64,000 nt of DNA from Eledone cirrhosa (taxonomy: Eukaryota): positions 367,598,001 through 367,662,000 of the forward strand of contig OZ024740.1 of NCBI GenBank assembly GCA_964016885.1. The letters run 5' to 3'. Below, piece after piece: positions 58,512 through 62,500 of this stretch (position 1 is the stretch's first letter; each line of letters starts with the position of its first letter). The position numbers and the translations under genes were made by a program. Under the pieces are notes generated by a model. The model did no database searches and was not told the origin of the DNA. It was given only the letters and a program-made list of their open reading frames with translations.

Positions 58512-59228
58512 AACCAAATAAATATATATATTTAAAAAAAAAATAAGACTCCAGTTGCATTTTCGATTTCATCTCTTTTTCTTTATCTATATATATATAT
58601 ATATATATATATATATATATATATATATATATATATATATATATATATATATATATATATATATATATATATATACATAAATATATATATATATATATTT
58701 ACTACCCTAAGTATTGAGTACTCTGGTGCGTTATGGTCCATCTTGTTCCTTACCACAACTTCTTCATTATATGTATATATATATATATATATATATATAT
58801 ATATATATATATATATATATATATATATATATATATATAAGTTGAAATAAAATGAAAACGAAATTTCATTTCTCACTCTTAGTACGGCACTTACTTAAAT
58901 GTAAGTATGTGTGTATACGTACATACATATATGTATACAGACGTACAGTAGCATGCATATATATATATATATATATATATATATATATATATATATATAT
59001 ATATATATATATATATATATATATATATATATATATATATATATATATATATATACACATATATACATACAGGTACACATACATATATGCACGTATCAGT
59101 TTAGCGGACGCTTATTATAACGCCGCTTTGTTCGTTTGTAAACAAACTGAACAGCCTGAATGTTATGCCGTACGGTGTTAAGGCAACCACGTCACCTTTT
59201 CACCTTTTTGTTCAACACTGACACAGGA

Positions 59229-59271
59229 ACGATGTACTGGTTTCAAGCTTGTTAGCTATCATCAGCACCGT
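59229..59271 (-). ncRNA. Minimal type-I hammerhead ribozyme (inverted arm)
   Basis: Minus strand: ACGGTG-CTGATGA-tagctaacaagctt-GAAA-CCAG-TA-CATCGT. Confidence 0.8.
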
Positions 59272-59524
59272 ATACCCATCTGCCAGATAGTTGAACGTTC
59301 GAAAGTATATACTTTCCTTATGAAAATGAAAATTAACGGCTGAGCAGCCTAATTTGCATATCGAGTGAGTTATGTCGTTTTCATTTTATTTCAACTTATC
59401 GTTCTCGGTATGCCTGACCGACATAACTTACTTGATATGCAAATTAGGCTGCTCAGCCGTTAATTTTCATTTTCATAAGGAAAGTATATACTTTCGAACG
59501 TTCAACTATCTGGCAGATGGGTAT

Positions 59525-59567
59525 ACGGTGCTGATGATAGCTAACAAGCTTGAAACTAGTACATCGT
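59525..59567 (+). ncRNA. Minimal type-I hammerhead ribozyme
   Basis: ACGGTG-CTGATGA-tAGCT aaca AGCTt-GAAA-CTAG-TA-CATCGT. Confidence 0.87.
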
Positions 59568-62500
59568 TCCTGTGTCAGTGTTGAACAAAAAGGTGACGTG
59601 GTTGCCTTAACACCGTACGGCATAACATTCAGACTGTTCAGTTTGTTTACAAACGAACAAAGCGGCGTTATAATAAGCGTCCGCTAAACTGATACGTGCA
59701 TATATGTATGTGTACCTGTATGTATATATGTATATATATATATATATATATATATATATATATATATATATATATATGCATGCTACTGTACGTCTGTATA
59801 CATATATGTATGTACGTATACACACATACTTACATTTATATATATATATATACACAAACTCTCTCTCATACACATGCACACACACACAAATAAAGCTATA
59901 TACATATATATATAGTAATAATAATAAATTTGAAGACTAAAATCCAAAGAGGGCACGATAAGGATAAATATATATCAAATATATAAGAACCGTAGAGCAA
60001 ATATTTATTAAAATAACAGATTAAAGTTTAAGCAAAGAATCGCTGCTAAGGGTGAAAGCAGCGATTCTTTGCTTAAACTTTAATCTGTTATTTTAATAAA
60101 TACATATATATGTATAAATATATACATACATATATATATATATATATATATATATATATATACATATATATATGTATATGGGTGTGTATGTGTATGTATA
60201 TATATATATATATATATATATATATATATATATATATATATATATATATATATATGTGTGTGTGTGTGTGTGTGTGTGTGTGTGTGTGTGTGTGTGTGTG
60301 TGTGTCTGGATTTTGTTTTGAATGAGAGTATGTGTAAAATGACACCTGTTCAAGTTTCCAATATTGATTAACTTAAAGTAGCATTTTATCGGAAAAACCT
60401 GATACAGCGTTTAAGAGATTAAGAGAACATGATGACACGAACAATGGTTATAAGCTGAAATAAAGTTAAATACTGATGTTAATTTTCTACTGTCAAGCAA
60501 AAAAAAGTTTTCATTTCTTCTAAACTGTCACTCATTTTAATGACAAGAAACGTGAAATCGTACCTCGAATCTCTAATGAGAAAGGGAACGTGAGCGTATT
60601 TTAAATTTACTATATATTTCAGGTATTATATGAAAACCAAGAAAGATAGACAGGCTCTAAATAATAGTTAATTTTCCTTTTCTCTACAAATATTTACTGG
60701 CAATTTCTTCCGTTGCAGACGAATCGGTGATTGAAACATGAGGGCTGTCGTGGGCGAGTTAATCCACACACACGCACATACACACACACACACACATACA
60801 CACACACACACATACACACACACACACGCGCACACACACGCTCTCTCTCTCTCGCACACACACACACACACACATATATATATATATATAACTTGCGCAA
60901 ACACATAATATGATTGCAGAAGAAAAGAGAGAGAATGCTGATAATTATTAGGCAAAGTTTAGATTCAAAACATAAATGTCGACCAACCATTCCTGGTTTA
61001 GTACTCTTCAAGAAGGCATTATTTGTACTTATTTGCAATTTAAAATTCAGAACGAGAATTAATCATTACCCACAGGATTTATAGAATAGAATTAGAAAGA
61101 TAAAAGATTCTAATTCCTTGCACGTCCACTCCAACAAAACTGCGAATCTCTATGAAGTTGAGACGCGTTCATACCATCGATTGTGTTTCATGCAATCAAC
61201 AAAGATTACTATAACACGGGCTGAAGTGTGATAAATTATTCTGGGGATCACTTCCGAAATAAATATCTATGATCAAACCGAACCACCGAATCCTGTCATT
61301 TCTCATTTTATATTGAATTTTCAAAAATCTGATCACGACAGTAATCCGTTTATTAGGCTAATTATATTTACAAATCCAATATAAGTAGGCATTGTAAAGA
61401 AATATTAGATAGAACTATACCCAGAACAAGAATAATTATATTCCAGAACAGGAATGATTCTTTCCTTGTGAAATATAGTCAAAATGGAATCCAAAGTAAG
61501 AAGCATAGCCGTGTAATCTAACTCGACACCAACAGTTATTATTCTCCTTTATCTTACAATTAATACTTATCTATTGCCAGGAATATAATAGATATTGAGA
61601 ATTTCGGACATGTTATTATAACGAATATTTGGAAGACTGCTGTGGGAGGACCGCTTTCGTTTCAGACAATAAGTGCTCCAGTAGATTCAATCGCCGTGAG
61701 ATTGATGTCTTAATAGGTGAAAATTCCACAGACAAGTGGCCTCTTAATGTAGTCCTCAGATACGTTCAGCGTGACATAATGGTTGTGAGGTTGGCACACA
61801 GAATTACAAGTATAACTTGAATGAAATCTCTATATACCCCACCCATCTAAACAACACAAACGCTCACACCAATATACACCTCAAAGACACGCGACTATCT
61901 TCTTGAAGTCTGATTGCGACAACAACAGCTACGAAAATAAATAAATAAATAAATAAATATATACAATAGCGACTTACCTACGTTTTGGCACCTTAATATA
62001 GTGAGCAACCACAGCTTCGTATATTGTCACTGGAGTGTTGCATTGTTAATCAAGCAGCCATGACTCAGGTTTTATACAAGAACATCTACTTTGGAGCTCT
62101 GTTGTTTATGCAGAGGCGTCAGTTCATGTCTGGTGAAAGCAATTTTGACCGTATGACTGTTAATGATGTGGTCGTATTTGTGTAGTAGAGGGAAGTATAT
62201 ATCTATGAGCGCTAAAATCTTCTTTGCAACATAAGCTTTGGCATTTAACGAGAAAGAATGCCAGAACTAGATTTTTGCTTTATATTTAGGTTTCTTTCCT
62301 ATTAGTATTTGGGGAGTGTACTGCTTCTATCCGTATGCTTAGTCATGACCATATTCATAGACTGGAGACCTGCACATTATGCATTGACAAAAAATAATGG
62401 ATATTGAATATTCTCCACAACAATATCAAACAACTTAAGACACTTATAGGGCCTTTCCCACGATATTCTCATATTACTAAACACCTTTTAAAGAAATGAC

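Follow-up and report, generated by a model that had tools for sequence, protein, structure and literature searches.

Layout of the locus

The element occupies positions 58837-59838 of the window, the whole stretch of 64,000 nucleotides of Eledone cirrhosa DNA that was analysed, and is made up of two arms of one non-coding unit arranged 5'-to-5' with (TA)n at both outer ends (Table 1). A self-comparison of the window returns it as an opposite-strand match at 58962-59828. A preliminary description of this DNA had called it the second fold-back of a family L, at 58838..59836, and a diverged homolog of 44636-45597; this holds, the arms of the two loci (here B and A) being 82.7-84.6% alike. The family name L is taken from that description, while K, M and N were coined in this analysis. 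The left outer (TA)n run is likely to be the target site of locus B.

Table 1. Coordinates of locus B, locus A and other repeats and Penelope-type fragments in the window.
Feature	Position	Strand	Remarks
Left outer (TA)n run	58774..58839		last 3 nt common to element end
B-left arm	58837..59377	-	about 0.97 unit; 3' end outward; tailed
Tail (one-sided extension)	58837..58895	-	59 nt; predicted hairpin; not at B-right outer end
Internal (TA)49 of B-left	58958..59055		98 nt
Hammerhead domain of B-left, type I	59218..59286	-	loop III is CA, palindrome lost
Inner 5'-to-5' junction of B	59375..59377		3 nt common to both arms
B-right arm	59375..59838	+	about 0.92 unit; 3' end outward; untailed
Two conserved blocks upstream of ribozyme, B-right	59435..59495	+	
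Hammerhead domain of B-right, canonical type I	59510..59578	+	predicted cleavage after 59561
Internal (TA)23 of B-right	59731..59776		46 nt
Right outer (TA)n run	59837..59852		adjoins B-right
A-left arm	44633..45089	-	1.09 units (period 419); tailed; hammerhead 44878-44946
A-right arm	45090..45594	+	about 1.18 units (period 430); untailed; hammerhead 45331-45399
Family K	25583-30071, 45799-46280, 52514-53060		hammerhead-motif pLTR, long helix II
Inverted repeat	9250-14080		arms 1.15 kb, 99.6% alike; spacer 2.3 kb
Fold-back of decayed PLE-like ORF (7375-8512)	6166-8826		one-sided extension 67 nt
Family N	46920-47136, 59904-60130		short fold-back; two copies 88% alike; left extension about 90 nt each
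Family M	580-740, 45655-45800, 58700-58775		3 copies, all short and all with their start at a (TA)n run
Direct repeat, about 950 bp, 90.6%	35930-36891, 51420-52350		ends at (TA)n; single-armed
RT and GIY-YIG fragments, CxxxxCxxC linker	2799-5438, 17333-17632	-, +	end at (TA)n
Large fold-back	54902-58675		internal tandem repeats about 310-340 nt; GIY-YIG fragment 56552-57088
Dispersed repeat, about 190 nt	35497-35704, 42566-42881, 43222-43435, 46422-46482, 49365-49561, 54275-54465, 63464-63646		at least 7 copies, both orientations

The cores of the two B arms are 98.6% alike, with 273 matches, 4 mismatches and one 8-nt duplication. Each arm also has sequence missing from the other (58862-58895 on the left only, 59400-59418 on the right only), so neither is a copy of the other. 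As had been noticed earlier, the minus arm ends as the plus arm begins, the first 25 nt of B-right (59375-59399) being the last 25 nt of the B-left tail (58837-58861), and the internal (TA)n differs in length between the arms, which likely diverged here by slippage. The ATG-initiated ORFs of at least 30 aa within the element number 13 and are short or microsatellite-derived, the longest (109 aa) running across a TA run; none of the ORFs inside the element is of the RT plus GIY-YIG kind, such ORFs lying elsewhere in the window. Of the two conserved blocks upstream of the B-right ribozyme, one has an octamer-like word and a small hairpin, and the other is a 16-nt palindrome containing TATATA. 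That they might form a promoter, of snRNA type, is a guess and a weak lead; the window has 13 instances of the octamer word, and 9 of these are not in the L family.

Locus A, whose arms give 250 matches and 11 mismatches, contains true partial tandems from which the periods of 419 and 430 nt are read; the period of B is estimated at 500-560 nt, depending on the TA run, and the GC content of the unit is 0.36-0.38. The proposal that the unit is cyclic therefore stands as a statement about sequence and does not amount to a demonstration of circular RNA. Folded as circles, the two A units are 68-69% paired (z -6.6 and -8.0; 0 of 60 shuffles for each), values to which TA-rich hairpins contribute and which were compared without a linear control.

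The ends of the two loci follow a common plan. The outer end of B-left falls on the identical base of the unit as that of A-left, and the untailed outer ends of B-right and A-right agree to within 3 nt and lie about 60 nt earlier in the unit than the tailed ends. With outer ends at two phases about 60 nt apart, one arm per locus is tailed, and at both loci a tail of 59-60 nt, predicted to fold into a hairpin, is found on one end only and an inverted 5'-truncated copy adjoins the 5' end. The outer ends abut TA with a gap of 0 on both sides of B; at A the gap is 1 on the left and the right side is TA/CA-rich. Only the inner junction differs between the loci, and the different permutation phase ascribed to locus B is thus true of that junction and not of the outer ends. 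The predicted cleavage site is crossed without a break in all four arms. Each arm at the two loci carries one ribozyme in 0.9-1.2 units, and no tandem array of at least two ribozyme-bearing units occurs at loci A and B, the read-covered stretch excluding the unit end. The window holds no further long match to a four-arm profile, the next, unrelated matches having E values of 0.003 or worse, nor, over its 64 kb, a coding partner similar to the L unit.

The hammerhead motif and its predicted fold

The domain common to the L arms is, as judged from sequence, a canonical type I hammerhead motif, defined by the core CUGANGA / GAAA / UH, a helix I of 6 bp, a helix II of 4 bp and a helix III of 1-2 bp closed by a palindromic loop, with the helix sizes of the canonical metazoan type I hammerhead taken from the available part of PMC4209133. 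Every one of these features is found in B-right and A-left. In B-right, a 3-nt bulge and a distal stem accompany the 6 bp of helix I; helix II has 4 bp, and the 2 bp of helix III are closed by a 2-nt loop that is palindromic. Across the window the pattern of core plus cleavage site is matched 8 times where 0.59 would be expected, and the four L arms account for 3 of these. A search of Rfam gave no match at gathering score and no hammerhead family among the best 150 of 153 rows, at E values up to 10; since Rfam is silent, the ribozyme call rests on motif and pairing. Rfam microRNA matches, below gathering scores and situated on TA repeats and palindromes, were dismissed.

Stem I has the sequence ACGGTG/CATCGT in the two B arms but ACGTTG/CAGCGT in the two A arms, and all 6 pairs are preserved, which bears out the earlier remark that it differs between the loci and still pairs. 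Individual arms have also changed: A-right has a G at the cleavage position (position 17), the loop III change of B-left removes the palindrome and weakens the predicted dimer duplex from -6.8 to -0.2 kcal/mol, and A-left has two distal pairs broken. The changes in A-right and B-left, two of the four arms, would be likely to disable cleavage. The contention that the core changes only at N7 is accordingly correct for fixed differences between A and B, but has to be qualified by the changes in these two arms.

On its own the ribozyme domain is not better folded than its shuffles (z -0.3 to -1.6, 6 of 6), and in the lowest-energy folds of three arms an extended helix I takes the place of helix III. 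The B core folds with z -3.09 in the sense and -0.94 in the antisense direction; a shuffle control on all four arms is weak (10/500 and 335/500).

Conservation of the fold between loci

Differences within the ribozyme domain that are fixed between A and B, in that both arms of a locus agree, number 8, namely N7, loop II, a bulge, one single-sided change and two double-sided swaps, and none hits the core or breaks a pair. Under random placement this has P 0.0003-0.004 for 8 of 8 over the whole domain, where the distal stem was drawn with the A and B sequences both in view, and P 0.011-0.034 for 4 of 4 in the proximal part; as two lineages only are compared, this is not a formal covariation test. 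When pairs predicted from one locus are scored on the other, two of the three sense comparisons show fewer broken pairs than expected by chance (P 0.001-0.003), and the third, with A-left, does not (P 0.10-0.11). Neither of the two antisense controls is significant (P 0.37 and 0.62), and double-sided changes reach significance only at the looser pair threshold. The idea that the ribozyme fold is under selection is therefore supported, with limits: the sequences point to selection on the RNA fold of a mobile lineage, and not on that of the inserted copies.

A separate observation concerns hairpins downstream of the ribozyme (59590-59700 compared with 45410-45510), where pairing is kept despite sequence change between A and B, so that structure outside the ribozyme also seems constrained.

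Other fold-backs and Penelope-type genes in the window

The window contains several RT and GIY-YIG fragments, and Pfam matched 3 of 10 ORFs, 2 of them below the curated cut-off. A fold-back with one arm extending past the other before TA-rich sequence is seen at 9 of 10 hand-picked loci, both L loci included, the tenth (54.9-58.6k), which sits directly left of locus B, having ambiguous ends; as the ten were picked as fold-backs they give no frequency, and other repeats of the window are single-armed. The one-sided extensions of the seven non-L fold-backs measure 67, 137, about 90, 94, 95, 90 and 88 nt, that of 137 nt belonging to the inverted repeat at 9250-14080, which has TA at both ends. 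The one-sided-tail fold-back is thus not special to the L family and is a general Penelope-like trait.

In family K a frameshifted RT/GIY-YIG ORF (26156-28395) is flanked by the pLTR, the 5' copy being inverted, and the family is also present as solo fold-backs at two further loci. Its tail leads to the ATG at 26156, all three K loci have a one-sided tail of about 90 nt, and the ORF resembles animal RT/GIY-YIG proteins with a best feature score of 0.98. With family K, the one-sided-tail fold-back layout is seen to belong to a coding element.

No hammerhead core was found by scans of family N, and the direct repeat of about 950 bp has a hammerhead-core match near its end (at 36727 and 52184). 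A very short core match is present at 3060 and 17373 in the fragments with the CxxxxCxxC linker, which are presumably Neptune-like. Two of the family M copies adjoin L loci, so such elements pile up in shared microsatellites.

The family in sequencing reads

Part of the L unit was found in 20 runs from 15 studies, 3 of which, all from one sample and possibly the source of this DNA, contain at least half of the words; exact L patterns gave 0 loci in metagenome contigs and 0 in viral contigs. Four of the 24 listed runs (X1, X23, X4 and X11) were aligned to 59376-59712. X1 gave 2,854 contigs, and X23, a RAD library of matching species label from another study, 72,697 of 12.5 million reads. X4, under a different organism label, gave 14 contigs that touch 29 of 29 bins, 11 of them less than 90% alike, and X11 a single short piece that provides no evidence. 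In the RAD reads the L family is high-copy and has many different fold-back junctions.

Within 59525-59567, and among the 40 of 52 variant rows listed, variants fall only at 59528, 59564, N7 and loop II. In X23, T at 59528 (31.7%) and G at 59564 (31.4%) rise and fall together across the two read pools, at 5.0 and 5.4% in the first and 50.7 and 47.9% in the second, a match that one inherited event could explain, the frequencies being without phase. A third state, A at 59528 (9.3%), would form a pair with the prevailing T. Coupling is poor at the distal pair 59518/59572 (56.7% against 38.0%), and the stem I match is not reproduced in the depth-weighted contigs of X1 (about 4% against 38%).

A strand switch is present in 13 of the 15 joints listed (the best 15 of 94), all from X23 and each at a different place, and for 7 of the 8 joints checked a head-to-head join accounts for the reads to within 5 nt, provided that these start near 59627, a cut site that is deduced, the library enzyme not being on record. 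Just 1-2 read starts support nine of the 13 strand-switch joints, each of which could come from one amplified molecule. Chimeras of restriction and ligation are an unlikely source, the joint positions being scattered. With both loci and these joints, fold-back insertion is recurrent as the preliminary description had it, though not as a property of this family in particular, given that it extends to other families of the window and, in the available part of PMC8557442, to PLEs at large.

A side observation in X23 is a set of 29,330 reads that match from 59627 onward only, with mixed letters before it (agreement 0.36); these reads may represent a larger related family or a library effect.

Origin of the insertions

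Because the ends of the element show the layout typical of Penelope insertions, it has likely been copied from RNA by a Penelope enzyme, and L is probably a non-autonomous, Penelope-dependent, retrozyme-like element, with head-to-head copies written into (TA)n by a Penelope-like element (PLE) in trans. PLE insertions are described, in the available part of PMC8557442, as having partial tandems, an inverted 5'-truncated copy, a tail of 30-40 bp that is often one-sided and a bias for (TA)n. At AT-rich sites, a purified PLE protein cuts both DNA strands and extends them; it starts synthesis at two RNA positions that delimit the tail, is a predicted dimer and works on unprocessed RNA, ribozyme cleavage not being needed (PMC11167929). 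The L tail, longer than the published 30-40 nt, is a point against the PLE account, as is the lack of a similar coding partner in the window.

In the process envisaged, the RT and GIY-YIG endonuclease of an autonomous PLE would act in trans and nick both strands of a TA target, after which each target strand would prime cDNA synthesis on L-family RNA, one from the tail end and the other from about 60 nt upstream. Synthesis of each cDNA would end at a point of its own, and the two products would be united by way of 1-3 nt that they have in common. The simplest account of the loci would be a pair of cDNAs, each made on a different target strand from a different start site and linked at the truncated end. 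As the arms cross the cleavage site unbroken and neither is a subset of the other, a linear monomer released by cleavage would not have been the template, and snap-back copying of a single arm is ruled out, each arm having unique sequence. The RNA would, on balance, have been an uncleaved molecule of more than one unit; a ligated circle is a reasonable candidate that falls somewhat short of an even chance. For locus A a linear template of about 1.35 units would suffice, provided it kept one ribozyme uncleaved, so a circle is allowed and not required. A fold-back without two ribozymes in the same direction could not release a monomer by double cleavage in cis, so that the sources of the RNA would be expected elsewhere, and copies in fold-back form are likely dead ends, left to decay.

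A bolder and rather doubtful version sees in the L loci the direct trace of a Penelope enzyme, working as a dimer, that mobilises the circular RNA of a retrozyme. One strand would be primed by each subunit, at one of the start sites that bound the tail, and about one turn would be copied; with one start site per subunit a two-armed insertion would carry a single tail, no more and no fewer, and the hairpin in the tail would serve as the cis signal naming the partner enzyme.

An alternative is that the arms are solo pLTRs, that is, the 5'-truncated ends of an autonomous PLE located elsewhere. The family K fold-backs at 45.8k and 52.5k share the layout while K also flanks an ORF, and truncated PLEs with opposite-strand hammerhead pairs 100-700 bp apart are on record in the available part of PMC4209133. 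However, what follows the tail in L is the start of the unit and not an ORF, as seen in three arms and in contigs under two organism labels, the ORFs of the unit are short or microsatellite-derived, and the L ribozyme helices are canonical in size where K has a long helix II. This origin is accordingly improbable.

Twin priming, the mechanism of L1-type elements, would have the second target strand prime upstream on one multimeric RNA to give the inverted arm, and the overlap of only 25 nt between the 3' end of B-left and the 5' start of B-right does resemble adjacent segments of a dimer. At locus A, however, the overlap is about 140 nt, and a gap of about 20 nt appears if the arms are assigned the other way round; in the read joints, the phases at which inner ends meet are many and unrelated, and titles and abstract starts in the literature yielded nothing on twin priming in Penelope. 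It is given a still smaller chance than the solo pLTRs.

Two further readings have very little left in their favour. An inverted duplication at the DNA level, MITE-like or replication-driven and with the ribozyme as a passenger, would suit nearly identical arms in a window rich in palindromes and TA runs, but is largely refuted by the sequence private to each arm, by outer ends that are not inverted repeats of each other and by structure kept on one strand only. An equally slim prospect, that A and B stem from one segmental duplication, which the first description had named as a refuting case, is not supported: the M and N repeats near both loci are not colinear, M being the neighbour of an untailed arm at A but of a tailed one at B, N being 58 nt distant from B but 1324 nt from A, M being identical at 54 of 56 positions against 83-85% for L, a third M copy (about 580-740) being without L, and the inner junctions differing; nor does the fold-back look like an assembly chimera, as the arms differ at 4 sites and an indel, the flanks are not mirrored and strand-switch joints appear in independent short reads.

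Relation to known elements and significance

The following comparisons hold for the parts available of the sources cited. With metazoan non-LTR retrozymes (PMC7229834; bioRxiv 10.64898/2026.07.22.740005) the L family has in common a non-coding unit of GC 36-38% at high copy in a genome that contains PLEs, a type I hammerhead with a weak, palindromic helix III and a strongly self-paired unit. A U-U at the base of helix II is shared with axolotl HHR_Amex2. The unit of 419-430 nt (500-560 in B) is at or above the 150-450 bp of PMC7229834 and within the 51-972 bp of bioRxiv 10.64898/2026.07.22.740005, where 8 of 9 predicted Xenopus dimers failed to cleave. Unlike these retrozymes, which form arrays of at least two ribozyme units, L occurs as dispersed head-to-head pairs of 0.9-1.2 units, and with no tandem array at loci A and B and a circle that is putative, L is filed as a retrozyme variant.

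With EN+ PLEs (PMC8557442, PMC11167929, PMC4209133) L shares the inverted 5'-truncated copy at the 5' end, the partial tandem, the one-ended extension, two fixed 3' end points, a TA-rich target and a hammerhead motif in the repeat, but differs in having no RT-EN ORF, a unit that closes on itself, a tail of about 60 nt and a canonical instead of a minimal ribozyme. Newt satellite 2 and the schistosome hammerhead satellites are likewise short hammerhead repeats, for which an internal promoter is reported (PMC2220036, PMC7229834), whereas that of L, with its octamer-like word and TATA-like palindrome, is only a guess.

The retrozyme class and the fold-back layout are each already known, and it is their combination that is added here. 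In the literature searched, which left out most subscription papers, as well as Repbase and supplements, no canonical-hammerhead non-coding unit with PLE-type ends was found; supplements of published work may already show such copies. The repeats of metazoan retrozymes are stated to have no conserved motif that points to the mobilising retrotransposon (in the part available of PMC7761336), and their mobilisation by PLEs has been argued from co-occurrence and kinship with pLTRs (in that of bioRxiv 10.64898/2026.07.22.740005). PLE-type ends on a canonical-hammerhead unit, beside coding PLEs with the same ends, provide a third line of evidence, and the insertion footprint is thus modest new evidence for Penelope-driven mobilisation of retrozymes. 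The L unit also defines an RNA and two start sites that are testable with purified PLE protein.
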